Of a stretch of DNA of 64,000 nt, positions 31,427 to 61,379 are shown piece by piece. The notes under the pieces are model-generated. The model was not told where the DNA came from and did not search any database. It was given only the letters and a program-made list of their open reading frames with translations. The first letter of the stretch is position 1. Every line of letters begins with the position of its first letter. Position numbers and translations under genes: made by a program. Location of the stretch: assembly GCA_964485575.1 (NCBI GenBank), contig CAZAJO010000008.1, positions 921 through 64,920 on the forward strand, in the 5' to 3' direction. Source of the stretch: an uncultured Gammaproteobacteria bacterium. Its GTDB lineage: Bacteria > Patescibacteriota > Microgenomatia > Levybacterales > GWA1-39-11.

Positions 31427-32161
31427 TTAGTCGAATAATCCGTCTTTTTTAGCTCGTTCAAGTGACTTTATGACTAGATTTTGATGATCCTCAAGTGACA
31501 GTGATTTGTTGAGGATCTCTTGAGCCACTTTCTGAACAATCCCATTACTTGCTTGCTCGATCCTATGCATTTTTGCTGTCTTGTATGTTTCTATTTCCTT
31601 CTCAAGATTGTTCAGTAACGTCTGTCTAAAGTCTCTTATCTGCTGCTGTAGGGCAAGCTCTAATTCACTTGTGACATTCTGAAACCCGCTCAGAGACAGA
31701 GTTGTTATCTGCTTTAAAGAGGCTTGGTAGCTTGCTGTAAAAGCATTTCCCGTGTCATATGCCTCCTTGTGGACATCAACTACTATCTTTTGCAATGCTT
31801 GGTCTAAAGCCATTTTTGAACTCGAGCTCACATTGCCAACGTCAACTACCATCCGCTCCAAAGCATTGTCCAAAGATGCCTTTGAAGTCTGACTGATATA
31901 CTGCGCTCCTGCAAGAACTTGGTTGGCCTGATGGGTCGCAATCTGCATAATCTGATTGGACTGATTGACCGCGTTGTCTAGTATCTGACGCTCGCGGGCC
32001 ATCCCATTGCCGACTATCTCACTGTAGTCAGTTTCGAGCTTATTCTCACGCTTGTCGATGTTTTTTTCTTTATTTCTTACTCCAAGCAAGTAAAAAACAA
32101 CAAAAACGACGATTACCAGGTCAAACACAACACTAATAACCTGGAAGAGCAGGTTGGGCAT
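31427..32161 (-). CDS. atpF: ATP synthase b subunit, long form
   Basis: N-terminal TM helix (LLFQVISVVFDLVIVVFVVFYLL) plus a long coiled coil with an internal duplication (ALDNALERMVVDV / ALDQALQKIVVDV). The ATG at 32161 lies 8 nt after a -10 box. Confidence 0.75.
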   Translation of the reverse strand: MPNLLFQVISVVFDLVIVVFVVFYLLGVRNKEKNIDKRENKLETDYSEIVGNGMARERQILDNAVNQSNQIMQIATHQANQVLAGAQYISQTSKASLDNALERMVVDVGNVSSSSKMALDQALQKIVVDVHKEAYDTGNAFTASYQASLKQITTLSLSGFQNVTSELELALQQQIRDFRQTLLNNLEKEIETYKTAKMHRIEQASNGIVQKVAQEILNKSLSLEDHQNLVIKSLERAKKDGLFD

Positions 32162-32169
32162 ATACATCC

Positions 32170-32198
32170 ATAGTACGGTAAAACGTGAATTTTGTGAA
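32170..32198 (-). promoter_or_regulatory. atp operon promoter candidate
   Basis: Minus strand TTCACA (32198-32193) - N17 - TACTAT (32175-32170), then 8 nt to ATG 32161. Confidence 0.45.
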
Positions 32199-32313
32199 GA
32201 TGTCAGTATATATAACTGAAGGAAGAATTGAATTTTGAGGTCATTAGACCTATAACTTTTCGCGCCTTACAAATGTCACAAGCCTATAGGTTGCATGCTG
32301 TATAATTACTGTT

Positions 32314-32463
32314 ATGCAAGCAGAAGTAAAAGTCATTCACCTCTTAGAACCTATGGAGGAAGGGAAGGGTACTGTTGCGCTATTTTTAAATGATGAATAT
32401 GGATTTACGGTATTCGAGCTTTATTCTAAAATTCGAAGCTTTTTTACTAACAATCAGTTATAA
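32314..32463 (+). CDS. small hypothetical ORF (49 aa), below the track threshold
   Basis: ATG..TAA, MQAEVKVIHLLEPMEEGKGTVALFLNDEYGFTVFELYSKIRSFFTNNQL. A TATAAT lies 7 nt upstream. No homology recognised. Confidence 0.25.
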   Translation: MQAEVKVIHLLEPMEEGKGTVALFLNDEYGFTVFELYSKIRSFFTNNQL

Positions 32464-32492
32464 TTTCTTACACATGAAAGGGGGTGAACTAC

Positions 32493-32909
32493 ATGACAAA
32501 ACTTAATCCTTATATAAATTTTAAAGACAACACGCGAGAGGCAATGGAATTCTACAAATCAGTATTTGGAGGAGAACTTACCATGAGCACTTTTAAAGAG
32601 GGCATGGGCCAGGACGGACCTGAGGCAGATTTGATAATGCATGCCATGCTTATCGTCGGACCTGAAATGACACTTATGGCATCTGACACTCCATCTCATA
32701 TGGAATACAAACCAGCTGCTGGAATCGGGATGTCTTTGAGTGGTGAAAGCTCAGATGAAGAGCAACTTACCAATTATTGGAACAAACTGTCTGTTGGCGG
32801 TACACCATTTATGCCACTTGGAAAAGCTCCATGGGGAGATACATTTGGAATGTTGACTGATAAATTCGGTATCAACTGGATGGTAAATATAGCTGGCAAG
32901 AAAGAATAA
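32493..32909 (+). CDS. VOC/glyoxalase-fold protein, PhnB/YjdN-like
   Basis: The N-terminal NPYINF..AMEFYKSVFGG and C-terminal FGMLTDKFGINWMVN are typical of this family. The SD AAAGGGGGTGA precedes ATG 32493. Confidence 0.7.
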   Translation: MTKLNPYINFKDNTREAMEFYKSVFGGELTMSTFKEGMGQDGPEADLIMHAMLIVGPEMTLMASDTPSHMEYKPAAGIGMSLSGESSDEEQLTNYWNKLSVGGTPFMPLGKAPWGDTFGMLTDKFGINWMVNIAGKKE

Positions 32910-32933: not shown

Positions 32934-32960
32934 AGCTCACTTTACGTGAGCTTTTTTTTG
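32934..32960 (+). terminator. Rho-independent terminator (bidirectional shape)
   Basis: Stem AGCTCAC (32934-40), loop TTTAC, stem GTGAGCT (32946-52), then a T-run 32953-32960. An A-run precedes the stem. Confidence 0.75.
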
Positions 32961-32992
32961 AATCTGATAGCGGTCAGTAGTATAATCGCCGC

Positions 32993-33442
32993 ATGAGAGA
33001 AATTTTTCCTGATTACGAGCTTACCGAAGACCATTTCATGGAAGTGATTAAGGACAGGATATCCAAACTAAAGATAAAAAATGGTGAATTAAAGACAGGT
33101 AATGGATTTGAAGACCCCGCAGAAAAAGAGAAAGATTGCAAAGGTAGATCAAAACACTATATTGCCTTGAACGGAAAAGATACACCAAGACAACAGGCTG
33201 TGTCTCTTGTTCATGAAGCTATACATATAGATATTTCTGAAAGATTTTGGGAGCAACCCATGTATGGAACGTTCATAGAAATGAGATCTGATGAGGAAAG
33301 GTTAGTCGCATCTAGAACTGAAAAGTTTTTAGGTGAAAATTTGTCACTTGCTTTAGCTGGACTATATTTTACAAAGATGAAGCATGGCAATGGTATCCAA
33401 ATTCCCCTCATTCCCGAATCTATGCTACCAACTACAGCCTGA
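32993..33442 (+). CDS. hypothetical protein with an HExxH motif (possible small SprT/ImmA-like zinc metallopeptidase)
   Basis: SLVHEAIHID at about aa 71-80. There is no other recognisable signature. Confidence 0.4.
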   Translation: MREIFPDYELTEDHFMEVIKDRISKLKIKNGELKTGNGFEDPAEKEKDCKGRSKHYIALNGKDTPRQQAVSLVHEAIHIDISERFWEQPMYGTFIEMRSDEERLVASRTEKFLGENLSLALAGLYFTKMKHGNGIQIPLIPESMLPTTA

Positions 33443-34238
33443 GGATGAGAAATGCTACACCAAGACCTGCAAGGGCAATTGCTGCTACTATCGTGACATT
33501 AAAGATAATCCCGAGATGAATTATGCGTGACGCCGCGGGATTTCGACCCAACGCCTCAACACCTTTTGCAGCTGCACGTCCAAAACTCAAAAATCCAAGT
33601 ATCATAGAACCTAAGACCACAATTGCGGCCATTATGTATTTAAATATTGCTGAAGGTCCTTCTTTTGTAGGAGTCAGTACTAACTTGAATACATCAGAAA
33701 GTGTACCTGGAAAGGTTGGCTTAGAGTTGAAATAGTGAAGATCAAGACTTATCGCTATCTTGTCAGACGCTTTCTTATTTGAGTTTGTATAGTCCTCAGC
33801 CGCAGTTCCCAATACATATCCCTCTTTTGTCGCTTTGACAGCAACCCCTGGCATTGTTGATGAAGTGACCAGATCTCCCTTTTTTATATTCCCCTCCAGT
33901 GAAGAGACATAAACATATACTGTTCCTGTTGAAATGACAGGCACACCATTTGTGATATTTGTGGTGTTTATAATAATTGCAGCATCCCGCGCAACTACTC
34001 CAAGGACTTGAGAATCGTATGGTATTGTGGTTGCTACTGCACCCTTTGACCCTGCCGAAAGAATAATACCATCCTTCACATTTTTATCCTTCACATCAAC
34101 CATATGAGCAACCCCCAAAGTAGCCCCGGTGTCAGTCGTTGAATTAACCGCAGGGGTAGCAGTCTGAGCTTCAATTTTTACAACGTTCGTTACAAAAACC
34201 AAAAACATCAATACTACAAATAGGAATAATCTTTTCAT
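33432..34238 (-). CDS. secreted/membrane protein with a C-terminal two-helix hairpin resembling the F/V-ATPase c subunit (no carboxylate)
   Basis: Signal peptide MKRLFLFVVLMFLVFVTNVVKIEAQT from ATG 34238. The C-terminus YIMAAIVVLGSMILGFLSFGRAAAKGVEALGRNPAASRIIHLGIIFNVTIVAAIALAGLGVAFLILRL aligns without gaps to the E. coli c subunit (K..E...RxP loop). Confidence 0.6.
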   Translation of the reverse strand: MKRLFLFVVLMFLVFVTNVVKIEAQTATPAVNSTTDTGATLGVAHMVDVKDKNVKDGIILSAGSKGAVATTIPYDSQVLGVVARDAAIIINTTNITNGVPVISTGTVYVYVSSLEGNIKKGDLVTSSTMPGVAVKATKEGYVLGTAAEDYTNSNKKASDKIAISLDLHYFNSKPTFPGTLSDVFKLVLTPTKEGPSAIFKYIMAAIVVLGSMILGFLSFGRAAAKGVEALGRNPAASRIIHLGIIFNVTIVAAIALAGLGVAFLILRL

Positions 34239-34257
34239 ATATCTACTATAGCAATTT

Positions 34258-35211
34258 TTACCTTTGACCAGAAACAATTTCGGAAAGACTTTGGCTATTG
34301 TTAACCTTTTGCGTTACGTCATCCTTTTCCCGTTGAAGTTCATTCACTTTTATATTTAAGTCTTCTGATTTTATCTCTAGTTCAATATTGTTGACTCGAA
34401 GTGCCTCTCCAATGAGATACCTTTCCAGTTCAAATTTATATAATAATTTCGTGTTTAGCCAGTTCACTGTCAGAGACATCAAATTCAGAAAAATGATAAG
34501 AAGTGGAATCGTCAATTCTTTATCAAACAGTTTCATATAACCTGCAGTCAAAAGTGCAAAACTCATAACAGGTGGAACAACAATCAAATAGATAAGAAAC
34601 CTGAGAGACAATCTACTGCTAGGACTGTCTATCGTTAGCATACCTAAAAATCCTCTATCAGGCTTACTTAGCAACAAGGACTGGCAACTTATGATAAATA
34701 GTGCAGAAATCATGAGTTGATTAACTTTTGTATGAAGATCTTGCTTTGTTATGACAGCATAAACAGATTCATAAAAAGTAAGTGCAACCAGTAGTATCGT
34801 GAAAAAGAGTATTAGTTGACTGAAAAAATGCCTATGGACTAATTTAGTGTAAAGCAAAATCATGGTAATACCAAAAACACAAAGAGCGACACCATAATAG
34901 AAATTACTTTGAGAACTGAGAATAGATAACACTCCAAAAAGAATAATAAGAACCAATAAAACAACACTAATAATCTTGCGTACGTTAGAAAGTTGAATGG
35001 TACTATACTTTTTCTTCTGGATTAACAAAAACAATGCTGAAGAAATAACCCCTGCAAAAATAAATAGATGAATCAAACCAAATAAAAACATCACAAAAGC
35101 TGCTCCCGCCGATAAAACACCACTAACATCTGAAATCCTTCTAATGAGGGTAACAGCGCCTGTATTTGCAGGAACATTTATATTTGAAGCGGGGTATACG
35201 ACTTGAGTCAT
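34258..35211 (-). CDS. polytopic membrane protein with a C-terminal coiled coil (hypothetical)
   Basis: About 7-8 hydrophobic helices, then ELEIKSEDLNIKVNELQREKDDVTQK. The ATG at 35211 lies 6 nt after a TATACT box; the track start at 35250 is a TTG. Confidence 0.6.
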   Translation of the reverse strand: MTQVVYPASNINVPANTGAVTLIRRISDVSGVLSAGAAFVMFLFGLIHLFIFAGVISSALFLLIQKKKYSTIQLSNVRKIISVVLLVLIILFGVLSILSSQSNFYYGVALCVFGITMILLYTKLVHRHFFSQLILFFTILLVALTFYESVYAVITKQDLHTKVNQLMISALFIISCQSLLLSKPDRGFLGMLTIDSPSSRLSLRFLIYLIVVPPVMSFALLTAGYMKLFDKELTIPLLIIFLNLMSLTVNWLNTKLLYKFELERYLIGEALRVNNIELEIKSEDLNIKVNELQREKDDVTQKVNNSQSLSEIVSGQR

Positions 35212-35217
35212 ACTAAA

Positions 35218-35246
35218 AGTATAGGTAAAATTACTATGGAATACAA
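35218..35246 (-). promoter_or_regulatory. promoter candidate, leaderless geometry
   Basis: TTGTAT (35246-35241) - N17 - TATACT (35223-35218) - N6 - ATG 35211. Confidence 0.45.
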
Positions 35247-35255
35247 ACAATCAAG

Positions 35256-35285
35256 TTCATAATTATTCACATAAAGGAGTATAAT
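35256..35285 (+). promoter_or_regulatory. promoter candidate for the receiver gene
   Basis: TTCATA (35256-61) - N18 - TATAAT (35280-85) - N6 - GTG 35292. An AAGGAG inside the spacer offers an alternative SD reading. Confidence 0.3.
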
Positions 35286-35291
35286 TTTAGG

Positions 35292-35663
35292 GTGACAAAA
35301 ATACTCTTGATTGATGATGATCCACTAATACGTCGGCTTTATTTAAAGGCACTTCAATTTTCAGGGTTTGAGACAAAAATTGCATCAGATGGAGAATTGG
35401 GAATAACAATGGCACGTACTTATCTTCCGGATCTTATCCTACTTGATATCATGTTGCCTAAAAAAAATGGGTTTGAAGTCTTAAGAGAATTAAAGATTGA
35501 TCCACAAACAGCCTCAATCCCAGTAATAATCCTGTCTAATCTCTCACACGAAAGTGATGCAGAAACTGCGCTTGATAGTGGAGCTATCAACTACTTAATA
35601 AAGAGTGATCACGAACCAAATGAAGTTGTGCAATTGATTCAAAAAACTCTTAGCATAAGTTAG
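35292..35663 (+). CDS. single-domain response regulator receiver (CheY-like)
   Basis: ILLIDDD..., DLILLDIMLPKKNG (phospho-acceptor Asp), and the ...ILSNL... and ...YLIK motifs. Confidence 0.9.
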   Translation: MTKILLIDDDPLIRRLYLKALQFSGFETKIASDGELGITMARTYLPDLILLDIMLPKKNGFEVLRELKIDPQTASIPVIILSNLSHESDAETALDSGAINYLIKSDHEPNEVVQLIQKTLSIS

Positions 35664-36673
35664 TTAGGTTGAAGAACTTCAAGTAATCCTGACAAAGACA
35701 TCGTTGCAACACATATCACCGAATCACAACCACCATAGTAAAGATATATAGTGTCATCTCTCACAATAGCACCACATGAGAATACAAGATTTGGAATTGT
35801 TCCTTGCATCTCATAATCTTTTTCTGGCTCAAGAAGGGGAGCATTCGTTCTTGAAATTATTTTACGAGGGTCAGAAGGGTCAAGTAGCATAGCTCCAATC
35901 TTATAAACAAATCCTGGATTGCAAGCAGCATGGTAGAACAAAAGAAGTCCTTTTTCAGTCTCTATTGGTGGTCCTGCAATACCAATCTTTATGTTGTCCC
36001 AGTTGTCTAGTCTGGCTTGGGCCATAATGCCGCCGGTTAAGAATTTGACATCAGGAAATGATAAATCTCTCAACTTATCAAACCAAATAGAATGGCCAAG
36101 TCTATGGAAAGCATAATACCCATTTTCAAGTTTAAAAACGCTTGCATCTTTATCATCAACCCCCGGCGGTGAGATAAGCTTTGGACTGTCCCAATTCCAG
36201 TTTTTGGCGACAAAATCACTGACAGAGATGGAGGTAAATGCGACTCTTGGAGGATTGGTTCCATCATATGCTGTATAGGTCATATAAAATCTGTTCTCGA
36301 TCTTTGTAATGCGGGGATCTTCGCATCCTGAATTCCATCCCGGTTTTGTGCTCATCTCAAAATCCTGGGTAGGACGGTAGATAGGCTCATCGAGATTTTC
36401 ATTAATGGTTAATCCATCAACGGATGAAGCGTATCCCAGACAGCTTACACCATCATATCCTTGAGCTCTATATATAAGATGGACTCTCCCTTCCTCATAT
36501 ACTACAGCCGGGTTGAATGTCGCTTTTGCCCGCCATGAAAAATTAGGATCCGGAGTGATGATAGGATTTCCGTCAAACTTTGTAAACTTCGTCTGGATTA
36601 CATCCTGAGGCTCACTTTCATTAATGGATTTTTTTGTGTTGTTTGAGGATGAAAATCCTAAGAACTCGAACAT
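35660..36673 (-). CDS. GH130-like glycosidase/phosphorylase (DUF377 beta-propeller)
   Basis: FNPAVVYEEGRVHLIYRAQG, GCEDPRITKIENRFYMTYTAYDG and YLYYGGCD are typical of the family. Confidence 0.7.
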   Translation of the reverse strand: MFEFLGFSSSNNTKKSINESEPQDVIQTKFTKFDGNPIITPDPNFSWRAKATFNPAVVYEEGRVHLIYRAQGYDGVSCLGYASSVDGLTINENLDEPIYRPTQDFEMSTKPGWNSGCEDPRITKIENRFYMTYTAYDGTNPPRVAFTSISVSDFVAKNWNWDSPKLISPPGVDDKDASVFKLENGYYAFHRLGHSIWFDKLRDLSFPDVKFLTGGIMAQARLDNWDNIKIGIAGPPIETEKGLLLFYHAACNPGFVYKIGAMLLDPSDPRKIISRTNAPLLEPEKDYEMQGTIPNLVFSCGAIVRDDTIYLYYGGCDSVICVATMSLSGLLEVLQPN

Positions 36674-36679
36674 ATATTT

Positions 36680-36708
36680 ATAGTAGCACTAATTGACCAC
36701 CGTGGTAA
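36680..36708 (-). promoter_or_regulatory. promoter candidate, leaderless geometry (GH130 gene)
   Basis: TTACCA (36708-03) - N17 - TACTAT (36685-80) - N6 - ATG 36673. Confidence 0.45.
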
Positions 36709-36721
36709 AATCAACTACATA
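36693..36721 (+). promoter_or_regulatory. divergent promoter candidate (NUDIX gene)
   Basis: TTGACC (36693-98) - N17 - TACATA (36716-21). This box overlaps the track start ATG 36721, which favours the start at 36742 (SD-like AAGGAAA upstream). Confidence 0.4.
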
Positions 36722-36741
36722 TGCAAAAGGAAAAATTTAAG

Positions 36742-37622: not shown

Positions 37623-39957
37623 GTGTTGGACTTGGCGTCGGCGTATTTGTCGGACTATTATTGTCATAATGATAATTCGATTTGTCAGATGGCCTTTTGT
37701 ATTTGTTGTCATCTTTATAGTGCTCGTTAACCCACGCATCAATCGCTTCTTGCCATCTATTCTTTCCGTCAGTTGAGACCGGATCATCTTCGACAAAATT
37801 TATCACTTCAATTGTATCGTAATCATTGCGAGACACTTCTTCGTCAGATGCCAATTTTCCTTGATCGTGTTTTGACATTTTCAGCGTTTTAAATATTGGA
37901 GATTTTGTTGTTGGCTCAGTCCCTTTGATGAAATATTCAACCCTTGTTGGTTGTCCATCAATTGGAAGACCCCCTGAGAAAGCATCAATTTGCTTATCAA
38001 TAATGCTATCAGGCTTTTTGAATTCTTCTTTTGAGGTTCCCTTAAGGACTCGTGTCATAACTTTATTCCAGATAGGAGATGCACCTGTTACACCTGACGC
38101 AATACGGGGATCGAGTGGTGTGTTGTCATTATTTCCAACCCAGACACCCACTGCAAATGATGGAGTATATCCGATTGTCCAGTTATCTCTTTTCTGGTCA
38201 GTTGTACCGGTTTTGACTGCAACAGTTCTCCCAGAGACATTGAGCCATGAATTTGGTCCAAAGGCTTCAGTTCTAGCATTATTATCAAGAAGAATGTGGG
38301 ATATTAAAAATGCCACTGACTCCTCAAGAACCTGCTGTTGACCTTTATCTTGATGCTTATAAAGAGTCTTTCCATGAGTGTCTTTTACTTCTTCTATTCC
38401 AAATGTTTCCTTCTTTTGACCGCCTCTCGCAAACACCGAGTAAGCAGAGGTTATCTGCACAAGACTTGCTTCACGTCCACCCAAAACAAGAGACAATCCA
38501 ACACTCTTAAGATGATCTGCGGTTGGCTCCCAATTTGAGATTCCCATATCAAAACCTTTTTGCATTACAGGCTTTATTCCAACCCGGGCAAGCATTTTCA
38601 CAGCTGGAATGTTAAGAGAATTACCTAGTGAGAAGCGTAGTTGGACAGGTCCTCTAAATTTACCGTCGTAATTGACAGGGGTATACGCTGTGTTGTTTCC
38701 GCTTCCATCGTTGACTGGAAAATCTGTCTTTACATCCATAATAAGAGTTGAAGGGGTATAACCCTTTTCAAGGGCAACAGCATACATTATCGGCTTTAGA
38801 CTTGATCCCGGTTGACGAAGCGAAGTTGCTGCGTTGAATTGCCCGTCGATATCGTCATTAAAATAATCGCGACTCCCAAGCATTGCAAGAATTCCTCCCG
38901 TTTTGACATCCAATACCATAACCGCTGCATTCTGGACTTTAAAATTCTTAAATCCCTCAAATTCTTTTGTAACAATTCCCTCTGCATCATCCTGAATGTC
39001 AGAATCCAGAGTAGTTTTGATAGTTAAGTTTCCATTACTGACATAATTCTCTCCAAACATATCCACTAATTGTTGTCGTACCCACATAACAAAATGGGGG
39101 GCCTTAATAGCTTCTGTCTTATGCTCTTTGAATGTGAAATTTGATATTTCCTTTAACGATTCGTCGGCTTGTTTTTGGGAAATATACCCTTCATCCTTCA
39201 TGCGTCTTAAAACGTCTTTGGAACGTCCAATGTAATTCTTGTCACTGTTTGAGAAAGGAGAATAATATGAAGGTAACTGTGGAAGACCTCCTAAGAATGC
39301 GCTTTGGGCGAGTGTCAGGTCTTTTGCGTGCTTGTTAAAATATAAATTGCTCGCCGCCTCAATTCCTACAGATGTTCCTCCATAAGGAATGTTGTTAAGG
39401 TACATCTCCAAGATCTGATCTTTAGAATATTTACTGTCAACCTGAACGGCTAAAATGAGTTCTTTCAGTTTTCTTGTGATACTTCGCTCTGATGTCAGAA
39501 GGGCAATTTTTACTAATTGTTGCGTAATAGTAGATCCTCCAGTTGCACGCTTTCTTAATAGTGGATCTAAAATCACTCCCCGGAACATACCGGTCAGAGA
39601 AAATCCTTTATTGCGCATAAAGTCCTTATCTTCAGTTGCGATTGTGGCATTTCGTAAATCCTGTGGAATTTGGTCAAGTTTTACATAAATACGATTGTAG
39701 TCTTTGTAGAAAGAGTAGAGGAGCTTTCCATTTTTGTCCAAAATTCTTGTCGAATCCTTTATGTTTCCGTTTGCTAATTTTCCGGGAGTTGGAAGATCTC
39801 GGCTTACCCAAAGAACATAAACAAACCCAAATAAAATTAATCCCACTAAACCAAAGAAGAGGTATTTAGCAAGCTTTGCTTCTAAAAATGCCGTTTTTGA
39901 AGCGAAAAATGGACGTTTTCTTTGTGCGGTTCGGCGCAGACGACTATAATGCTGCAT
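37612..39957 (-). CDS. class A penicillin-binding protein (PBP1A-type transglycosylase/transpeptidase) with a Pro/Thr C-terminal tail
   Basis: GT51 motifs ATEDKDF and GGSTITQQL. Transpeptidase motifs SSLKP, SLN and KTGTT. The tail is SPTNTPTPSPTPTP. ATG 39957 is preferred over TTG 39975. Confidence 0.92.
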   Translation of the reverse strand: MQHYSRLRRTAQRKRPFFASKTAFLEAKLAKYLFFGLVGLILFGFVYVLWVSRDLPTPGKLANGNIKDSTRILDKNGKLLYSFYKDYNRIYVKLDQIPQDLRNATIATEDKDFMRNKGFSLTGMFRGVILDPLLRKRATGGSTITQQLVKIALLTSERSITRKLKELILAVQVDSKYSKDQILEMYLNNIPYGGTSVGIEAASNLYFNKHAKDLTLAQSAFLGGLPQLPSYYSPFSNSDKNYIGRSKDVLRRMKDEGYISQKQADESLKEISNFTFKEHKTEAIKAPHFVMWVRQQLVDMFGENYVSNGNLTIKTTLDSDIQDDAEGIVTKEFEGFKNFKVQNAAVMVLDVKTGGILAMLGSRDYFNDDIDGQFNAATSLRQPGSSLKPIMYAVALEKGYTPSTLIMDVKTDFPVNDGSGNNTAYTPVNYDGKFRGPVQLRFSLGNSLNIPAVKMLARVGIKPVMQKGFDMGISNWEPTADHLKSVGLSLVLGGREASLVQITSAYSVFARGGQKKETFGIEEVKDTHGKTLYKHQDKGQQQVLEESVAFLISHILLDNNARTEAFGPNSWLNVSGRTVAVKTGTTDQKRDNWTIGYTPSFAVGVWVGNNDNTPLDPRIASGVTGASPIWNKVMTRVLKGTSKEEFKKPDSIIDKQIDAFSGGLPIDGQPTRVEYFIKGTEPTTKSPIFKTLKMSKHDQGKLASDEEVSRNDYDTIEVINFVEDDPVSTDGKNRWQEAIDAWVNEHYKDDNKYKRPSDKSNYHYDNNSPTNTPTPSPTPTP

Positions 39958-39966
39958 GAGTAGTCT

Positions 39967-39995
39967 AGTATACAATTTTTGAGAGTAACAATCAA
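39967..39995 (-). promoter_or_regulatory. promoter candidate, leaderless geometry (PBP1A)
   Basis: TTGATT (39995-90) - N17 (contains CTCAAA) - TATACT (39972-67) - N9 - ATG 39957. Confidence 0.45.
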
Positions 39996-40004: not shown

Positions 40005-40460
40005 TTATTTCATGTATTTTTTGAGGTAATTTATTCTTTCAGTTTGGATGATGTATCTTCTGAAAGCGGAGTGGAGTGGGCGGGGCAAATTGTCGAGAGT
40101 GAACCATCCGATATCATCAATCTTATCCTTTTCCATGATTTTTACATTCCTTGGATCAACTTTAACGATAAATCCAATTGCTAGCCAGTGAGTCTTTATT
40201 CCTTTTTGAATACGTATCGCCGAGATTGCCGGAATCTGTTCCAGAATTTCTGCTTTACACCCCAATTCTTCTTTAACCTCTCGCAAAACTCCCTGCTCAG
40301 GCGTCTCTCCAAACTCTAATTGTCCACCCCCATTATCCCACCGTCCAACCTCATCTCTACAGGCTTTACCCCTTTTATGTAATAGGATGTTGCCTTTTCC
40401 ATCCATGCAATAAAAATTCATGGTAACTCCAATATAATCAATCCCAACTTTACGTTTCAT
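40005..40460 (-). CDS. NUDIX hydrolase
   Basis: Nudix box GGGQLEFGETPEQGVLREVKEELG. ATG 40460 (MKRKVGIDY...) is preferred over the TTG at 40478. Confidence 0.85.
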   Translation of the reverse strand: MKRKVGIDYIGVTMNFYCMDGKGNILLHKRGKACRDEVGRWDNGGGQLEFGETPEQGVLREVKEELGCKAEILEQIPAISAIRIQKGIKTHWLAIGFIVKVDPRNVKIMEKDKIDDIGWFTLDNLPRPLHSAFRRYIIQTERINYLKKYMK

Positions 40461-40468
40461 AGTACAGC

Positions 40469-40496
40469 AGTATACCAAATGAGAATGTTATGGCAA
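40469..40496 (-). promoter_or_regulatory. promoter candidate, leaderless geometry (NUDIX)
   Basis: TTGCCA (40496-91) - N16 - TATACT (40474-69) - N8 - ATG 40460. Confidence 0.45.
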
Positions 40497-40518
40497 AAAA
40501 ATCTAAATTGACTATAAT
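40490..40518 (+). promoter_or_regulatory. promoter candidate, leaderless geometry (tyrS)
   Basis: TATAAT (40513-18) - N6 - ATG 40525. The -35 is weak (ATGGCA 40490-95). Confidence 0.4.
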
Positions 40519-40524
40519 CTATAT

Positions 40525-43866: not shown

Positions 43867-43895
43867 TTGCCATTAAGCCTCAAATTCTGTATAAT
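43867..43895 (+). promoter_or_regulatory. promoter candidate (rpmF)
   Basis: TTGCCA - N17 (ttaagcCTCAAAttctg) - TATAAT (43890-95) - N10 - ATG 43906. Confidence 0.5.
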
Positions 43896-43905
43896 ACTGA
43901 GAAGT

Positions 43906-45121: not shown

Positions 45122-45150
45122 TTGTAATTGAGCCTCAAAAATAGTACAAT
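45122..45150 (+). promoter_or_regulatory. promoter candidate (rpsP operon)
   Basis: TTGTAA - N17 (ttgagcCTCAAAaatag) - TACAAT (45145-50) - N11 - ATG 45162. Confidence 0.5.
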
Positions 45151-45161
45151 TACACCTTACT

Positions 45162-49468: not shown

Positions 49469-49472
49469 ATCA

Positions 49473-49502
49473 ATAATACGGTCAAAGCGGAGACGATGTC
49501 AA
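49473..49502 (-). promoter_or_regulatory. internal promoter candidate
   Basis: TTGACA (49502-497) - N18 - TATTAT (49478-73) - N4 - ATG 49468 (N10 to the second ATG). Confidence 0.3.
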
Positions 49503-52717: not shown

Positions 52718-53355
52718 ACAACCAGTATGATTGAGACCAAAGCACCTGTCAAGAAAGCCATATATAAGGCTACGATGACTGATGGAAATCCCAATAAAAA
52801 CCCTAATACGAAGGAAAATTTAACATCCCCAAACCCCATTCCCCTCCCCTTTGTAATTGCGAAAAGTATAAGAAAAAACAGCAGTGCACCGATTCCTGCA
52901 TATAGATGATTTGTTAGCGGCACATGCTTCTCGTAAAGATAAAAGATGCTTGCTATCGTTGACACTATGACTAATAAGTCAGGTATAATCCCGTATTCGA
53001 TATCGGCAAAAAAGATTCCTATAAGACTCCACAATATCACAGCTAAAAACAAGGCAGAAAACATAGTAATTGTCTGCGCCATAAATAGTGTGGCAACAAG
53101 CGTAAATGTTATACCAGTCAAAACTTCAACAATGATGAGCCTTCGCGGAATTTTTTTCTTACAAAATCTACATTTTCCACCCAAGATAAGATAAGAGACT
53201 ATAGGGATAAGATCTTGTGGGGAGAGTATTCTTTTACAGTGTTCACAGTACGATCTTCCACCAACAATACCACGCCCCGTTGAAAGTCTATCAATAACAA
53301 CGTTTAGAAAACTCCCCAAGACGCTACCAATTATAAAAGAGAGTAGTAGAACCAT
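52594..53355 (-). CDS. pilD: prepilin peptidase (A24 family)
   Basis: Zn-finger CEHC...CRFC. The catalytic Asp lies in GFGDVKF. Multiple TM helices. Confidence 0.9.
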   Translation of the reverse strand: MVLLLSFIIGSVLGSFLNVVIDRLSTGRGIVGGRSYCEHCKRILSPQDLIPIVSYLILGGKCRFCKKKIPRRLIIVEVLTGITFTLVATLFMAQTITMFSALFLAVILWSLIGIFFADIEYGIIPDLLVIVSTIASIFYLYEKHVPLTNHLYAGIGALLFFLILFAITKGRGMGFGDVKFSFVLGFLLGFPSVIVALYMAFLTGALVSIILVVWRKLHFFGSTIPFGPFLVVSVVISLFWGEQILNIFVNNFL

Positions 53356-53368
53356 TCCTTAAGTATAC

Positions 53369-55443: not shown

Positions 55444-56010
55444 TTACTGTGTACACCAGTAGCAGTTGGCATTATTAGGAGCTACTGGATTGTTTGGACC
55501 TCCTACGCAAGCTGCATTTGAGCTTGGAGTAGTACCATCCTGGTTATACTTTGTATTAATATCACGCTCTTGAGATTTTGATTTTGGCTGATAGCACATT
55601 GTTATATTCCCACCTGTCTCACTAGCATATAGATTGGCAAGTATTCCGGTAGCTGTTGTGAAGGCTGGTTTGAGTTCTCCCTCAGTTATAAGAACTCCGA
55701 GACATGTTGTGAACATAGCAGAATCGGTAAATAAATTGACTGCTGACAACGTATTGTTGCCTACGCCCATACATTCAGCACCTGCTGCCCCCCAAGGCAT
55801 AGCACTATGAGTAGTGTAGTAGCGAATGTTTGCATTCAGAAACTCAACCGCAGTATTTTTAGAATTTGAATCTTGTGCTTTATTCAACTGCTCGAAAGGG
55901 TCAATAGTCGCAACCAAAGCAGCAGCGAGGATACCGAGAATACCAATAACAACGAGAAGCTCGATGAGGGTGAAACCTTTCTGTAACTGTCGGACAGGTG
56001 ACAATTTCAT
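55444..56010 (-). CDS. type IV pilin (major-pilin candidate)
   Basis: MKLSPVRQLQKG|FTLIELLVVIGILGILAAALVATIDP. It has its own strong promoter and C-terminal Cys pairs. Confidence 0.85.
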   Translation of the reverse strand: MKLSPVRQLQKGFTLIELLVVIGILGILAAALVATIDPFEQLNKAQDSNSKNTAVEFLNANIRYYTTHSAMPWGAAGAECMGVGNNTLSAVNLFTDSAMFTTCLGVLITEGELKPAFTTATGILANLYASETGGNITMCYQPKSKSQERDINTKYNQDGTTPSSNAACVGGPNNPVAPNNANCYWCTQ

Positions 56011-56019
56011 ATTAAGTCA

Positions 56020-56049
56020 ATCATAACCACAATGAATTTCCCTTGTCAA
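56020..56049 (-). promoter_or_regulatory. promoter candidate (major pilin)
   Basis: TTGACA (56049-44, inside the palindrome CCCTTGTCAAGGG) - N18 - TATGAT (56025-20) - N9 - ATG 56010. Confidence 0.5.
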
Positions 56050-56064: not shown

Positions 56065-56673
56065 TTAAAGGAAGATAGATTCAATGGCAATTTTTCTATT
56101 TATGTTATTGGTTTTGGTAAGACTCAAAAGAGGTAAAGCTTTCTTACAATAATGAAAATAACTGACTACGTTTTCATCATCGATGCTTTCAAGAAGTAGT
56201 GTCCTTAAAACAGGGATAATTTCATCTAAAGAATAATCCTCTAGAAAAATTGCTGCATCATCTATCGTTCCCCAATCTCCTTTTGTCTTGCATATGTTCC
56301 TTATCAGGCTAGGGAGCTCTTTAATAATAGTTGTTTCAAATCCCACTCTGACAACCGAACATCTGGAACGAATCGTCGGCAACAAATAATCTTCGTTCAT
56401 TGATACAAAAATGAAATAAATATTCTCATTTGCTTCTTCAATATTTTTAAGAAGAGCATTCTGTGCCTCAATAGTAAGAGTACCTCTAAAAACGATCAGT
56501 TTTTTTGTTGGCGTTTTGTAGTTGAGGGATTTTTTTATATTTCTTGCATCTTCAATCTTGATGATTTCATCAATATATTCAGTCTCGAAAGGGGAGAAGA
56601 GATTTTCTATCTGGTATCTCTCTAAATATTCATCCGTAAGTCTTTTGTCACCGATTAATAAGATGCTATTCAT
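56065..56673 (-). CDS. holB: DNA polymerase III delta'-like subunit (no Walker A)
   Basis: EAQNALLKNIEE and LPTIRSRC motifs. Confidence 0.7.
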   Translation of the reverse strand: MNSILLIGDKRLTDEYLERYQIENLFSPFETEYIDEIIKIEDARNIKKSLNYKTPTKKLIVFRGTLTIEAQNALLKNIEEANENIYFIFVSMNEDYLLPTIRSRCSVVRVGFETTIIKELPSLIRNICKTKGDWGTIDDAAIFLEDYSLDEIIPVLRTLLLESIDDENVVSYFHYCKKALPLLSLTKTNNINRKIAIESIFL

Positions 56674-56707
56674 TCAATTTATTTTATACCATATATAGAA
56701 AGTGTTG

Positions 56708-56760: not shown

Positions 56761-56781
56761 GGTTTGTAGTGAGGAAAAACT

Positions 56782-58527
56782 ATGCCTACTGTCCAAAATC
56801 AATTTAACGCCCCTGTTGATAGTGCTGGGCCAAGTATTGGAAGTATCCTTGTCCAAGAAAAACTCTTAAGCCCAGAACAATTCGCAAATCTTAAGGTTGA
56901 GGCAGCAAAGCAAAATATTGATATTGATAAGCTTATCCACGATCTTCAGATCATCCCCGAAGAGAAATATTTCGAAGCACAAGCAAAAATGCTCAATGTC
57001 CCCTTTACAAGCGTAACTACTCTTCCTTTTTCACCTGAAGCTCTTGGATTTATTCCAAAATCTGTGGCAGAAAGGTTTAATCTCATTCCGTTCGCATTTG
57101 ATAGGGAGGCAAAAGTTCTATCTGTTGTCATGAGCAACACAAATGATGTTGAGGCTATTGAATTTATTAAGCAAAAAACTGGCGCAACTATCAAGGTGTT
57201 CCAGGGAATTCCTACCGAAGTTACACAGGCTATACAGACCCAATACAGTTTCGGGCTGGTTGGTGAAGTTAAAGCAGCTCTCAAAGAAAGCGAGAAAATC
57301 CAAAAAGTTAAAACTTTTGATTTACAAAGCATTTCAGAGGTTATTAAAGAAGCACCTATAGCCAAAATAGTTTCTACAATTCTTGAGTATGCTGTTAAGA
57401 GTAGAGCTTCTGATATACATCTTGAGCCTCAAGAGGATAGAGTGAGAGTGAGATACAGGATAGATGGCATCCTTTATGAGAGGCTATCTTTGCCGTTAGG
57501 AGTAAGTGAAGCCGTTATTTCTCGTGTCAAAATTTTATCGGGTCTTAAAATTGACGAGCATAGAACTCCCCAGGATGGTCGTTTTAATTTTAAGGTTGCA
57601 GAAGAGGAGGTTGATCTTCGTGTAAGTTCACTTCCGACTGTTTTTGGTGAAAAAATTGTCATGAGGTTGCTTCGAAAATCCGGGGGAGTACCGACTCTTA
57701 ATGACCTTGGCCTGGGAGGAACATCCCTAAGGACACTTGAAGCTGCCATGCTTCGTCCTCATGGAATCATTCTTGTCTGCGGACCTACCGGATCTGGTAA
57801 AACAACGACTCTTTATGCAGTCCTGTCAAAACTCAATACGACAAGAGTAAATATTCTCACCCTAGAAGATCCTGTCGAATACCAAATTCCTGGCGCCAAT
57901 CAAGTTCAGATCAATGATGATGTAGGCCTTACTTTTGCCACAGGTCTCCGGGCATTTTTGAGGCAAGATCCGAATATCATACTCGTAGGAGAGATTCGTG
58001 ACAAAGAGACGACAGAACTTGCCATACAGGCTTCATTGACCGGACATTTAGTGTTCTCGACACTTCACACTGATAGCGCATCAGGAGCTCTTCCTCGTCT
58101 TATCGATATGGGTGCAGAAACTTTTCTTCTTGCCTCAACGATCAATGCGACGATGGGACAACGTATCGCAAGAAAGATATGCTCTCATTGCAAGATTGAA
58201 TACACCCCGCCACCTGAGATCATTGAAGAGATGAGAAAAGTTCTCGGCCCACTGATGCCAAAAGGTAATGGTGCACCTATAAAACTATTTAAAGGTTCAG
58301 GATGCGAGGTTTGTGGCCACTCAGGATTCTTGGGTCGGGTCGGAATCTATGAAGTAATGGCTATCAGTGAAGGGATTGCAAAACTCATCTTAGAGAGAAA
58401 AGACAGTACGACAATTGAGACAAAAGCCAAGGAAGAGGGAATGATTACAATGAAACAAGATGGATACCTCAAGGTTCTTTCCGGAGTAACAACAATCGAT
58501 GAGATTCTAAGAGTTGCGCAGGAATAA
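56782..58527 (+). CDS. pilB: type IV pilus assembly ATPase PilB (GspE family)
   Basis: T2SSE N-domain, Walker A GPTGSGKTTT, and a tetra-Cys CSHC...CEVC. Confidence 0.93.
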   Translation: MPTVQNQFNAPVDSAGPSIGSILVQEKLLSPEQFANLKVEAAKQNIDIDKLIHDLQIIPEEKYFEAQAKMLNVPFTSVTTLPFSPEALGFIPKSVAERFNLIPFAFDREAKVLSVVMSNTNDVEAIEFIKQKTGATIKVFQGIPTEVTQAIQTQYSFGLVGEVKAALKESEKIQKVKTFDLQSISEVIKEAPIAKIVSTILEYAVKSRASDIHLEPQEDRVRVRYRIDGILYERLSLPLGVSEAVISRVKILSGLKIDEHRTPQDGRFNFKVAEEEVDLRVSSLPTVFGEKIVMRLLRKSGGVPTLNDLGLGGTSLRTLEAAMLRPHGIILVCGPTGSGKTTTLYAVLSKLNTTRVNILTLEDPVEYQIPGANQVQINDDVGLTFATGLRAFLRQDPNIILVGEIRDKETTELAIQASLTGHLVFSTLHTDSASGALPRLIDMGAETFLLASTINATMGQRIARKICSHCKIEYTPPPEIIEEMRKVLGPLMPKGNGAPIKLFKGSGCEVCGHSGFLGRVGIYEVMAISEGIAKLILERKDSTTIETKAKEEGMITMKQDGYLKVLSGVTTIDEILRVAQE

Positions 58528-58529: not shown

Positions 58530-59597
58530 ATGGACATCAATCAATTATTAGAAAAGGCCATCACAACAAATGCTTCAGACCTTCATCTTATGGTCGGTGT
58601 ACCTCCCGTGTACAGAATAAATGGAGCACTCCAGCAGCTATCTACTGTACCACCACTTACGGATCAACAACTTGAGCAAATGGTCATGTCTTTGCTCTCC
58701 CCAGCACAAAAAGATATGTTTGTCACCAACCGCGCTCTGGATTTCTCGTATGGGTATGGGGGTGGAAATTTTGGAGATAAAGGTAGATTTAGGGTCAACG
58801 TTTATTACCAAAGAAATTCAGTTGCTGCAGCATTTAGACTACTTCCTCCGAAAGTAAAGACAATAGAAGAACTTCGCCTCCCCCCTATTTGTCACAAGCT
58901 AGCTACTCTAAAGCATGGATTTGTATTGATCACAGGACCGACCGGACATGGTAAGACAACTACAATTGCCTCAATAGTTAATGAAATAAATATGACAAGA
59001 GCCGCAAACATTCTAACAGTTGAGGATCCAATAGAATATGTCTTTCCCAAGGGAAGAAGCATAATATCTCAAAGAGAACTTGGACACGACACATTATCCT
59101 GGGCTGAAAGTCTTAAAAGCGCACTACGGGAAGACCCCGATGTTGTTATTGTAGGCGAAATGAGGGACCCCGAAAGCATAGCAAGTGCTATAACTATTGC
59201 CGAAACTGGCCACTTAGTACTGTCAACGCTTCACACAAATTCGGCTGCACAAACAATAGACAGAATAATCGACTCATTTCCAGAAGCCCAACAAAATCAG
59301 GTAAAGATCCAACTCGCGGCAACACTTGAAGCAGTAGTATCCCAAAGACTGATTCCAACGATTGATGGTCTAAGGATTGTTGCAACTGAAGTTCTTCTTG
59401 CCACAAATGCAGTCAGGGCCAACATCCGAGAAGGTAAGACTCACTTGATAGATTCGACGATCGAGACGTCTTCAGAAGAGGGAATGAACTCACTTGAAGC
59501 ATCTCTCGCACAACTCGTTAAGGAAGGCATCATAACCCTTGATGTTGCACAAGCTTATGCATTAAGACCTGATAGCCTTGCCCGCATGATGGGATAG
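58530..59597 (+). CDS. pilT: type IV pilus retraction ATPase PilT
   Basis: ASDLHL, Walker A GPTGHGKTTT, and the GHLVLSTLHT and AIRNLIRE-like AVRANIRE motifs. Confidence 0.9.
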   Translation: MDINQLLEKAITTNASDLHLMVGVPPVYRINGALQQLSTVPPLTDQQLEQMVMSLLSPAQKDMFVTNRALDFSYGYGGGNFGDKGRFRVNVYYQRNSVAAAFRLLPPKVKTIEELRLPPICHKLATLKHGFVLITGPTGHGKTTTIASIVNEINMTRAANILTVEDPIEYVFPKGRSIISQRELGHDTLSWAESLKSALREDPDVVIVGEMRDPESIASAITIAETGHLVLSTLHTNSAAQTIDRIIDSFPEAQQNQVKIQLAATLEAVVSQRLIPTIDGLRIVATEVLLATNAVRANIREGKTHLIDSTIETSSEEGMNSLEASLAQLVKEGIITLDVAQAYALRPDSLARMMG

Positions 59598-59601
59598 AAC
59601 T

Positions 59602-60804
59602 ATGGATTATTCATTCGTTGCAGCTGACAAGCAAGGACTCAAACAAAAAGGAAAACTTGAGGCCAATGATCAAAAAGAGGTAGTTGATTACCTTCGGTCG
59701 AAAGAGTTAACCCCACTTGAAGTAAAGAGTCTTGAGAAGAGGGAAAGTAGTCTCATGGGTTATTTTTCCCGTGTCAAAGGGAATGACATCGTTCTTTTTA
59801 CCAGACAACTTGCTTCAATGATCCTAACCGGTCTTACCGTTATTGAGAGCTTGAATATTCTAAAGCAACAGAACAATAAACCACAGATGCAAAAGATTGT
59901 CGATGATCTTATAGCAAATCTTTCAGAAGGAAAACCATTATCAACTGCTCTTGCAAATTATCCGGCAGTTTTTTCGACCACCTATATTGCCCTTATAAAA
60001 TCGGCAGAAGAGGGTGGTATCTTGGATAAAGTGCTTGCCCGTCTTGCCGACAATCTTGAAAAGTCAGAAGAAATCCACAAACGGGTAAAATCAGCTCTCT
60101 TTTACCCAGGGATCATTATCTCCGGTGTAGTAATTGTTATCGTCATGATGAATGTTTTTGTTATCCCACAAATGGGTGCATTATACGAAAGTCTTGATCT
60201 TCAGTTGCCTATCATGACTAGGATTGTTCTTGCTGGATCAAAATTGACGACAACACTTCTTCCTTTCTCTATCTTTTTTATTATTGGCGGGTATTTTGGT
60301 TTTAAGAGATTTGCAAAAACAGTAACAGGCATTCGGATTATCGATAAAATAAAGTTAAGAGCTCCAGTTTTTGGGGACATCATGAGGTTATCTATCTTAA
60401 GTGAGGTATCAAGAACCATCTCATTGCTGGTAAATTCCGGCGCATCCCTTATTGGAGCATTAAATATTGCCGCAGATGTTTCAGGAAATGTCTATTACAA
60501 AAGCGCTCTCAAAGGAACGAGCTCTCTTGTTGAAAAAGGAGCTGGACTGTCGGTCGCTTTACAAAATCAGATGATATTTCCACCTTTAATGATACAAATG
60601 GTAAAAGTTGGAGAATCTACCGGAAAAATTGACGAATCCCTTCTGAAAGTAAGTGAATATTTTGAAAGAGATCTTGATATTAAGGTAAAGACTCTTACGA
60701 CCTCCATAGAACCTATCCTTATCATCATTCTAGGAGTCTCTGTAGCATTCCTTATTATCTCAGTTATTACCCCTATATATTCACTGGTATCTCAAATCCA
60801 GTAG
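59602..60804 (+). CDS. pilC: type IV pilus platform protein PilC (GspF family)
   Basis: Duplicated T2SSF domains and 3 TM segments. Confidence 0.9.
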   Translation: MDYSFVAADKQGLKQKGKLEANDQKEVVDYLRSKELTPLEVKSLEKRESSLMGYFSRVKGNDIVLFTRQLASMILTGLTVIESLNILKQQNNKPQMQKIVDDLIANLSEGKPLSTALANYPAVFSTTYIALIKSAEEGGILDKVLARLADNLEKSEEIHKRVKSALFYPGIIISGVVIVIVMMNVFVIPQMGALYESLDLQLPIMTRIVLAGSKLTTTLLPFSIFFIIGGYFGFKRFAKTVTGIRIIDKIKLRAPVFGDIMRLSILSEVSRTISLLVNSGASLIGALNIAADVSGNVYYKSALKGTSSLVEKGAGLSVALQNQMIFPPLMIQMVKVGESTGKIDESLLKVSEYFERDLDIKVKTLTTSIEPILIIILGVSVAFLIISVITPIYSLVSQIQ

Positions 60805-61342
60805 GAAGCGGGTAGGTATAAAGAGTCGCATTTTTAACATCATATCCATCTCTGCGCTCATCAGTTGACGGGAGTACACCATCCAAAACCCCTATCACCC
60901 AACCATGACAGACAAATAAAGGTTTTTCATTAGGATACTCCTCTAGAATATCCCTAAATTCTCCAATAATACGAGTCCTAAAATCCTCGTGCGATTCGCC
61001 GTTTGGAGGCGTTAGTAGGTGCCATTGCCTTCCATGGGTTTCTTCCATTTCAGAAACATATCTCGTCTCGAAATCTCCTAGATTTCTTTCTGATAAGTTG
61101 GGGCGTACTACTATCGGTAGGTTGTCGAATGCAAAAGAAATCATCTGGGCGGACGTAAGGGCTCTTCTGAGAGGGGACGTAAAGATTTTCGTTATTTCAA
61201 CATCTTTAAGCTCTCTGATAAGTTGTTCTACCTGTTCTATGCCAGTAGGAGACAAGGGTCTATCCTGACTTCCCTGAACACGCTTGATCTTATTCCATTC
61301 AGTTTCACCGTGCCTGACTAAATGTATAACTCGTTCACTCAT
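60773..61342 (-). CDS. histidine phosphatase family protein (phosphoglycerate-mutase-like)
   Basis: LVRHGETEWN and a downstream ...VCHG... motif. Its 3' end converges on and overlaps pilC by 32 nt. Confidence 0.85.
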   Translation of the reverse strand: MSERVIHLVRHGETEWNKIKRVQGSQDRPLSPTGIEQVEQLIRELKDVEITKIFTSPLRRALTSAQMISFAFDNLPIVVRPNLSERNLGDFETRYVSEMEETHGRQWHLLTPPNGESHEDFRTRIIGEFRDILEEYPNEKPLFVCHGWVIGVLDGVLPSTDERRDGYDVKNATLYTYPLPTGFEIPVNI

Positions 61343-61350
61343 AAGGGAAT

Positions 61351-61379
61351 ATTATACATCGCTATGAGCTCAAAACCAA
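61351..61379 (-). promoter_or_regulatory. promoter candidate, leaderless geometry
   Basis: TTGGTT (61379-74) - N17 - TATAAT (61356-51) - N8 - ATG 61342. Confidence 0.45.

Follow-up and report, generated by a model that had tools for sequence, protein, structure and literature searches.

How is translation initiated at genes whose start codons lie only a few nucleotides downstream of a promoter-like box? The question is raised by a stretch of DNA of 64,000 nt (the window, meaning the whole stretch at its full length), which has about 39% GC, the standard code (code 11) and very short intergenic gaps, and which comes from a Candidatus Levybacteria bacterium (Microgenomates; Candidate Phyla Radiation (CPR)/Patescibacteria) using that code. 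Open reading frame (ORF) content and Pfam matches revealed an ATP synthase operon, GH130, three NUDIX genes, PBP1A, tyrS and recG, together with rpmF-nusB-rnc-rpsP-KH-trmD, a large type IV pilus cluster, gyrB and ppa. We confirmed that boxes resembling the -10 promoter element abut the start codons of genes in this window, an arrangement that is real, far beyond chance, statistically robust and evolutionarily conserved. With a probability that we put at about 80%, most transcription units would be read from a sigma-70-type promoter with its -10 hexamer ending 4–11 nt, modally 6, before the start codon, so that leaderless-type mRNAs would result. This was also the central interpretation of a preliminary description of the window, and we find it supported as the best one by the position of the boxes, their promoter identity, their restriction to the first genes of transcription units, their conservation, the held-out loci and the missing Shine-Dalgarno (SD) sequences.

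Boxes abutting the start codons of first genes

The 70–80 nt upstream of every gene start in the window were inspected and each hexamer was placed by coordinate, with N6, for example, denoting a gap of 6 nt between hexamer and start codon. For the statistics, genes were called greedily by ORF length and the start was taken as the first ATG at most 15 codons from the first possible start of the ORF, a choice made blind to promoters because circularity was to be avoided. A unit-first gene was one having an upstream gap of at least 25 nt or a divergent neighbour, and a strict box was TAnnnT with at least 5/6 match to TATAAT, ending 4–11 nt before the start codon (N4-11). The window statistics cover the region beyond 26.5 kb, using 500 dinucleotide shuffles of the same upstream sequences as the null. 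Related loci were 14 from metagenome-assembled Candidatus Levybacteria/Microgenomates (L007-L020), the closest by an RNase III probe (96-49% identity), in addition to near-identical contigs from several sequencing runs (Logan; L001-L006). Held-out loci around gyrB were fetched from metagenomes, the eight closest having GyrB 57–79% identical and 36–51% GC; an exact look-up of the gyrB protein matched no record. Several of the syntenic Levybacteria-like metagenome-assembled genomes (MAGs), namely the L007-L014 and L015 records with RNase III 63–96% identical, were deposited as 'uncultured Gammaproteobacteria bacterium', which looks like a taxonomic mislabel.

All twelve boxes listed in the preliminary description were present on direct reading with exactly the gaps given there (Table 1), although its count of 'at least twelve' was too low, with 6–8 further boxes bringing the total to 18–20 junctions. 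Among the boxes it had not listed is a weaker one of the same kind upstream of the glycosyltransferase gene 55393. In the window, 13/22 unit-first genes carried a strict box at N4-11, compared with 1.7±1.2 in the shuffles (maximum 6 in 500) and with 1–2 when bins of 8 nt elsewhere in these upstream sequences were counted. The L007-L020 loci had such boxes at 53/143 unit-first genes (shuffles 10.6±3.0), with 29 unit-first genes having them at exactly N6 (shuffles 1.3±1.1); operon-internal genes of these loci were boxed in 16/128 cases, and seven non-CPR loci recovered with the same probe gave 1/72. Among the held-out loci, the eight closest had 19/62 first genes boxed at N4-11, their own control bin N20-27 giving 4/62, and the remaining 72 gyrB loci, from assorted bacteria, had 40/661 (Fisher p=3.8e-8 against 19/62). 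The distance from -10 hexamer to start codon, proposed in the preliminary description as a check, thus revealed enrichment of TAnnnT in the window, the relatives and the held-out loci; the 83 boxed genes of window and relatives peaked at N6, with 43 at N6, 9 at N7, 11 at N9 and 7 at N11.

By their sequence features, the boxes are sigma-70-type promoters and not AT-rich ribosome sites, because they have a TTG partner 17–18 nt away, are enriched in TGn and are concentrated at unit-first genes. The TTG was found at spacer 17 in 19/83 and at spacer 18 in 10/83 of the boxed genes, with about 2 at each other spacer, and TGn directly preceded the hexamer in 24/83. The TTGnnA-like -35 halves described earlier could be seen as perfect TTGACA at the PilX-like and major pilin genes, but were weak at the 35211 gene, GH130 (TTTACC) and tyrS (ATGGCA); several genes with a poor -35 carry an extended -10 TGn instead. 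A generic promoter scan of 38 kb gave the rpmF, pilin and PilX-like promoters as its three best matches (11/12 to consensus), all abutting gene starts, and six of about twenty 10/12 matches also adjoin gene starts. Divergent pairs lie close together (GH130/NUDIX 47 nt, NUDIX/tyrS 64 nt, membrane protein/receiver 80 nt) with their promoters interleaved back to back, leaving no room for two promoters and two leaders. A pyrimidine at -1, according to the Y-1/R+1 rule, was present in 72% of boxed versus 63% of unboxed genes, a marginal difference. An Rfam search of 26–64 kb gave no T-box, riboswitch, ribosomal protein leader or other family.

With regards to conservation, the tyrS box (TATAAT or TATACT) stands at exactly N6 in all 13 genomes, the most distant having 38% protein identity, even though the six bases after it and the spacer before it have wholly changed. 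The N6 gap was found at pilD in 5/8 genomes (including L007, L009, L013 and L016) and at the 34238 gene in 5/7, as TATAGT or TAAAAT in L007, L009, L010 and L011; the orthologue footprints of these two genes numbered 6/8 and 6/7, respectively. L009, L010 and L012 keep the atpF-like promoter TTCACA-17-TACTAT with a diverged spacer and the second ATG 8 nt beyond it, and the invariant TTGACA of the PilX-like gene in 11 relatives is accompanied by a -10-like box 4–11 nt from the start. GH130 has a box at N6-N9 in relatives, PBP1A has TATAAT at N6-N7 in L012, L013, L014 and L016, NUDIX 40460 has TATACT at N6-N12 in L011-L013, the holB-like gene has TATAAA at N9 or TATAAT at N6 in L009, L011 and L016, and the major pilin has the same layout in L009 and L029. 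At gyrB the box lies 16 nt from the ATG in the window and at N5-N12 in relatives.

The ribosomal protein genes were more variable. Upstream of rpsP the box was at N7-N11 in 9/11 genomes (N7-N8 in L013, L014, L016, L017, L018 and L020), with leaders of about 37–42 nt in L008 and L009, and upstream of rpmF it was at N6 in the distant L018-L020 and at N10 in the window, with 30–50 nt leaders in L008, L011, L012, L014 and L016. This suggests gain and loss of leaders at ribosomal protein genes over short evolutionary time. Some of the leaders in L008, L009 and L011-L016 upstream of these two genes hold hairpins or short repeats. It was also seen that GCCTCAAA, at 43877-43884 and 45132-45139 (plus strand), occupies the -35/-10 spacer of the rpmF and rpsP promoters, always 5 nt before the -10 box, and that it is kept in the rpsP promoters of L007-L009 and L011-L014 and at L010:9350, also in cases of leader insertion, so that a regulatory element common to both promoters may be present.

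Proposed leaderless initiation and its alternatives

RNA polymerase normally initiates about 7 nt after the -10 hexamer, and leaderless mRNAs, as known from mycobacteria, Deinococcus and E. coli, have their 5'-terminal AUG/GUG recognised directly by the ribosome. The promoters described here are of the ordinary housekeeping kind (-35 TTGnnn, a 16–18 nt spacer and -10 TAnnnT, often with TGn), and because polymerase initiates at the distance just given, an N6 transcript would begin with the start codon itself, at its A (or G), with N7-N11 leaving a stub of 1–5 nt. Such mRNAs would have no space for an SD, and their 5'-terminal AUG would be read directly by a 70S ribosome, or by a 30S subunit with initiator tRNA. 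Downstream genes of operons would be served by coupling of termination and reinitiation, as their tight abutting or overlap suggests, and a classical SD is retained at VOC and ppa and, in weak form, at pilB and pilT.

Several observations speak against leaderless-type mRNAs as the general rule. Several -35 halves are weak, and the boxes at N9-N11 (PBP1A, pilin, holB-like, rpmF and rpsP) imply leaders of 2–5 nt unless polymerase starts unusually far downstream; leaderless translation in E. coli is reduced when the 5' end is extended by a few bases. The leaders of rpmF and rpsP in some close relatives mean that the arrangement is not fixed. The first 40 nt of genes fold more weakly than internal segments, equally so in boxed and unboxed genes, and therefore do not discriminate. 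Finally, the related loci are largely orthologous, so that counts across them are not independent, a dependence that is lessened but not removed by the N6 gap being kept with diverged flanks and by the held-out loci.

Were the boxes real promoters of mRNAs with normal leaders, whether or not these hold an SD, translation would have to start at a downstream codon. A second in-frame ATG is indeed nearby at NUDIX 36721/36742 and at PilX-like 49468/49462, and the first ATG is shifted in the PilX-like genes of L009 and L011 and in the PBP1A of L007. We nonetheless consider this unlikely, as for tyrS, rpmF, rpsP, GH130, pilD and others both orthologues are aligned from their first residue onwards, and as the N-termini are typical of their families (MPQEPKRR for rpmF, VTKILLIDDD for the receiver, leader-G|FTLIEL for the pilins). 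Moreover, the ATG stays 6 nt away from the box although the intervening sequence varies, which would be unexpected if the ATG were irrelevant.

We regard it as rather less probable again that TAnnnT is an AT-rich, non-SD ribosome-binding or standby site of the Bacteroidetes type (GeneMarkS-2 'group B') on mRNAs begun farther upstream, even though the lineage is SD-poor and some operon-internal genes are boxed at N6 (9/128 versus 0.8 expected). The group B motif is defined as preceding first and internal genes alike (PMC6028130), and this pattern of one motif at both, lacking promoter features, was not what we found, given the lower share of boxes at internal genes in the related loci. A -35 TTG at 17–18 nt and TGn would be needless for a ribosome-binding site, the divergent pairs offer no space for promoters farther upstream, and the boxed 'internal' cases of pilD, orf34238 and pilin 52717 look like internal promoters. 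That the boxes arose by chance in AT-rich intergenic DNA, or as an artefact of in-frame TAA/TAG stops upstream of ORFs, we hold to be highly improbable. TAnnnT alone is frequent in DNA of 38% GC, at a loose threshold the shuffles of the window give 4.6/22, and promoter totals for the whole region barely exceed those of shuffles (64 versus 52.5 and 65 versus 53.1). The strict counts, however, are 5–20 standard deviations above shuffles, with 30 boxes at in-frame offset 6 versus 1, 1, 5 and 2 at offsets 0, 3, 9 and 12, and control bacteria have no such peak. The third hexamer base is T in 73% of the 83 boxed genes, giving the codon TAT and no stop; this base, and the restriction of the peak to offset 6, ruled out that the N6 peak stems from in-frame stops.

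Shine-Dalgarno use and known initiation systems

As the preliminary description had it, the twelve boxed genes that it listed lack an SD, with no complementarity to 16S rRNA of at least 4 nt being found 4–12 nt upstream of their starts; an AAGGAG at the receiver gene is located upstream of its own -10 box. The strong SDs claimed for VOC and ppa were also found, with both AAGGGGGTGA sites present (32478-32487 and 63472-63481), and the ppa SD is kept as canonical GAAGGAGGTGA in locus L028. Together with weak SDs at pilB and pilT (AGGA/GAGGA), these were the only ones in the window. Four-base SD cores 3–12 nt upstream were not enriched at first genes (13/164) or internal genes (11/147; control bin 29). 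The 3' end of 16S rRNA (GGATCACCTCCTT) was sought in the fetched loci, and no rRNA gene was found there. An intact and functional anti-SD is probable, because the SDs of VOC and ppa are retained and GAAGGAGGTGA occurs in L028.

Most operon-internal genes have neither box nor SD and abut or overlap their upstream neighbour, presumably being translated by coupling through termination and reinitiation. The earlier view that two initiation modes coexist therefore needs extension, as leaderless-type and SD-led starts were both seen but SD-less internal genes make up a third mode, and SD use is rare. The clearest leadered gene is pilB (56708-56784, plus strand), in which a TTGACG-17-TACGAT promoter is followed by a leader about 40 nt long, containing the terminator-like hairpin CCGCTTTTAGGAAGCGG (56744-56760), and then by GAGGA; the hairpin may be an attenuator or regulatory hairpin.

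Leaderless organisation is already well documented in Actinobacteria, Deinococcus-Thermus, Mycoplasma and archaea, and what we describe is a known principle in a little-studied lineage. The bacterial leaderless genomes form GeneMarkS-2 group C, comprising Actinobacteria (such as Mycobacterium tuberculosis), Deinococcus-Thermus (such as Deinococcus deserti) and some Mycoplasma, whose signature is a Pribnow box located about 6–8 nt ahead of the start codon in the first genes of operons (PMC6028130). Our window resembles group C in that the box is found at first genes, these genes lack SDs, SD-led and leaderless starts are mixed and gene finders based on ribosome-binding sites mis-set starts (PMC6028130), with a localised -10 near the start, a promoter partner (-35 or TGn) and depletion at internal genes all being found here. 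It differs in that SDs at internal genes, normally retained by group C, were undetectable (11/147, as above). According to the MetaGeneMark-2 preprint, group C genomes with code 11 almost all have a high GC content, unlike the low-GC (~39%) Levybacteria window, which belongs to a CPR lineage. The boxed share, about 60–75% of window units as judged from sequence alone, exceeds the 25–50% of leaderless units that group C bacteria are predicted to have and is similar to the 167/262 measured in D. deserti (PMC6028130).

In the CPR, scarcity of SDs or changes of the anti-SD are known from subgroups of Parcubacteria and from Absconditabacteria, Wolfebacteria, Campbellbacteria and Peregrinibacteria (PMC10783764, PMC9297842), with anti-SD loss in a Parcubacteria subgroup only and none reported for Microgenomates (PMC9297842). 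As in the SD-scarce CPR lineages (PMC10783764; PMC9297842), pairing between 16S rRNA and mRNA would add little here to start-site selection; unlike in the CPR with altered anti-SD, VOC and ppa retain SDs that match the canonical anti-SD, and L028 does so with GAAGGAGGTGA. Neither of these two papers describes promoter-abutted (leaderless) starts (PMC10783764, PMC9297842). Leaderless transcription in archaea (haloarchaea and Sulfolobus; 'group D') is similar in that the majority of units are leaderless and internal genes are handled differently, but the archaeal TATA/BRE box lies about 23–26 nt upstream of the start, whereas here a bacterial -35/-10 promoter has its -10 at about 6 nt. We found no paper on leaderless transcripts in CPR, Patescibacteria, Saccharibacteria or Microgenomates, within a limited set of literature that leaves such absence unproven. 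The one set of CPR transcription starts found in that literature was for Nanosynbacter lyticus.

At somewhat less than even odds, Levybacteria, and perhaps Microgenomates, would constitute a low-GC, standard-code lineage where about two-thirds or more of the units are leaderless and where SD pairing is nearly abandoned even at internal genes, with the anti-SD kept. If true, their initiation landscape would be nearer to that of haloarchaea or Deinococcus than to that of typical bacteria, and initiation in this branch of the CPR would rest mainly on recognition of 5'-terminal AUG and on coupling, with little SD pairing, which bears on the reduced ribosomes of these organisms. Both the reduction of the CPR ribosome (shortened bS1, missing uL30/bL9) and extreme intergenic compaction could be connected with such a landscape.

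Start codons and other features of the window

TATAAT at N6, when read in frame as TAT-AAT, would let an ORF run on through its own promoter, and starts would thus be mis-set because the open frame tempts gene callers to an upstream TTG or GTG. Among the start corrections put forward in the preliminary description, those at 32161, 35211, 39957, 40460 and 43906 held, but that at 36742 did not. The 32161 start is favoured over 32167 by the conserved box 8 nt from the second ATG in relatives; 35211, 39957 and 40460 are in agreement with the Logan gene calls, made independently and with products of 317, 781 and 151 aa; and 43906 gives the N-terminus MPQEPKRR typical of bL32, with ATGCCACAA conserved in relatives. 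For the NUDIX gene, 36721 is preferred to 36742 by TGgTAAAAT at N9 and by a Pfam NUDIX domain that fits the longer protein from residue 9, yet an AAGGA 9 nt upstream keeps 36742 a possible start.

The GTG start of the receiver gene is supported by strain L001, which keeps TATAAT-N6-GTG and in which a point change makes an ATG inside the -10 box. This polymorphism, at 35274-35276, reads AAAGGAG in the window versus AATGGAG in L001/L005 (L001:848), where the ATG was adopted by the gene caller to give a 129-aa product, an example among strains of how promoters mislead start prediction. The small rpmF gene was missed by gene calling in the Logan contigs. As the starts in CPR MAGs are mostly called by finders based on ribosome-binding sites, ORFs of this kind would be extended through their own promoters and small genes lost; as a practical rule, TAnnnT-N6-ATG should help to predict where promoters lie, where operons are delimited and which N-termini are the true ones in uncultured Microgenomates.

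A 33-aa hydrophobic small ORF, METIRKKKWIMRTLMVIVTLAMVATIILPYVIQ*, lies at 41720-41821 (plus strand), beginning 1 nt past the tyrS stop and abutting the recG ATG (TAGATG), and its C-terminal part is conserved as coding in L007-L018. Since it abuts recG (41822), the latter is operon-internal in a unit tyrS-smallORF-recG, and its candidacy as a unit-first gene with a box at N2 was ruled out.

Table 1. Gene starts of the window and the promoter boxes or SD sequences preceding them, given as -35, spacer, -10, gap and start codon. 'Additional' marks boxes that the preliminary description did not list.
Gene	Positions	Strand	Layout	Remarks
atpF-like	32159..32198	-	TTCACA-17-TACTAT-N8-ATG(32161)	ATP synthase b-like by position, no Pfam match
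VOC/glyoxalase	32478..32495	+	AAGGGGGTGA, 5 nt, ATG(32493)	SD-led
orf32993	32958..32995	+	TTGAAT-17-TATAAT-N6-ATG	149 aa, no family; additional
Secreted or membrane protein 34238	34236..34253	-	TGcTATAGT-N6-ATG	Promoter inside 3' end of upstream gene; additional
Membrane protein	35209..35247	-	TATACT-N6-ATG(35211)	Weak -35 TTTGTA, spacer 18
Response-regulator receiver	35256..35294	+	TTCATA-18-TATAAT-N6-GTG(35292)	
GH130	36671..36709	-	TGcTACTAT-N6-ATG(36673)	
NUDIX gene, start 36721	36703..36723	+	TGgTAAAAT-N9-ATG(36721)	Additional
PBP1A	39955..39995	-	TTGATT-17-TATACT-N9-ATG(39957)	
NUDIX 40460	40458..40496	-	TTGCCA-16-TGgTATACT-N8-ATG(40460)	
tyrS	40490..40527	+	ATGGCA-17-TATAAT-N6-ATG(40525)	Back to back with NUDIX promoter in 64-nt gap
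rpmF (bL32)	43867..43908	+	TTGCCA-17-TATAAT-N10-ATG(43906)	GCCTCAAA in spacer
rpsP (bS16)	45122..45164	+	TTGTAA-17-TACAAT-N11-ATG(45162)	GCCTCAAA in spacer
PilX-like	49466..49502	-	TTGACA-18-TATTAT-N4-ATG(49468)	Second in-frame ATG 49462 is at N10
Pilin-like 52717	52715..52752	-	TTGACA-17-CATACT-N6-ATG	Inside pilD coding sequence; additional
Prepilin peptidase pilD	53353..53367	-	TATACT-N6-ATG(53355)	Additional
Major pilin	56008..56049	-	TTGACA-18-TATGAT-N9-ATG(56010)	
DNA pol III delta'-like (holB-like)	56671..56691	-	TGgTATAAA-N9-ATG(56673)	Additional
pilB	56771..56784	+	GAGGA, 6 nt, ATG(56782)	SD-led; leader with hairpin upstream
Histidine phosphatase	61340..61379	-	TTGGTT-17-TATAAT-N8-ATG(61342)	
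gyrB	61476..61523	+	TTGCAA-17-TACAAT, 16 nt, ATG(61521)	Short leader of ~9 nt, no SD
Inorganic pyrophosphatase (ppa)	63472..63494	+	AAGGGGGTGA, 10 nt, ATG(63492)	SD-led; SD overlaps gyrB stop codon

In the pilus cluster, the pilin-like gene 52070-52717 (minus strand) overlaps the prepilin peptidase gene by 124 nt (52594-52752 region). Its promoter and ATG lie in pilD codons (F-L-T-G ... I-I-L), with the DNA invariant in at least 10 genomes and the ATG retained even where pilD has W->C. With the ATG at 52717, the prepilin leader would be unusually long (about 45 aa); an in-frame TTG, from which the leader would have 20 aa, is an alternative. The gaps at 51169-51205 and 52030-52069 (minus strand), upstream of pseudopilin genes and of a 23S_rRNA_IVP-family gene (51664-52029), hold short AT-rich tandem units (TTGAGAA/TTGATAA, 'tagttaat' and 'actaata') that differ among relatives (equivalent gaps in L007, L008 and L016-L019).

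The ATP synthase operon begins with the b-like subunit that has no Pfam match, with no a or c subunit genes upstream in the window, and its alpha and beta subunits (26884-30925 and 31427-32167 region, minus strand) have P/Q-rich C-terminal tails of about 40–50 aa. Positions 1-26113 (minus strand) are covered by one uninterrupted frame of more than 8,731 aa, which runs off the left end of the window and has a weak HTH_17/MerR-like N-terminus (MKLLTLKQAARQLG...). About 45 short plus-strand ORFs in 1–26 kb had suggested stop-codon reassignment, which was ruled out as they are the antisense shadow of this giant ORF. Upstream of the giant ORF lies an AT-rich gap of about 480 nt (26114-26600), with no box abutting its ATG.

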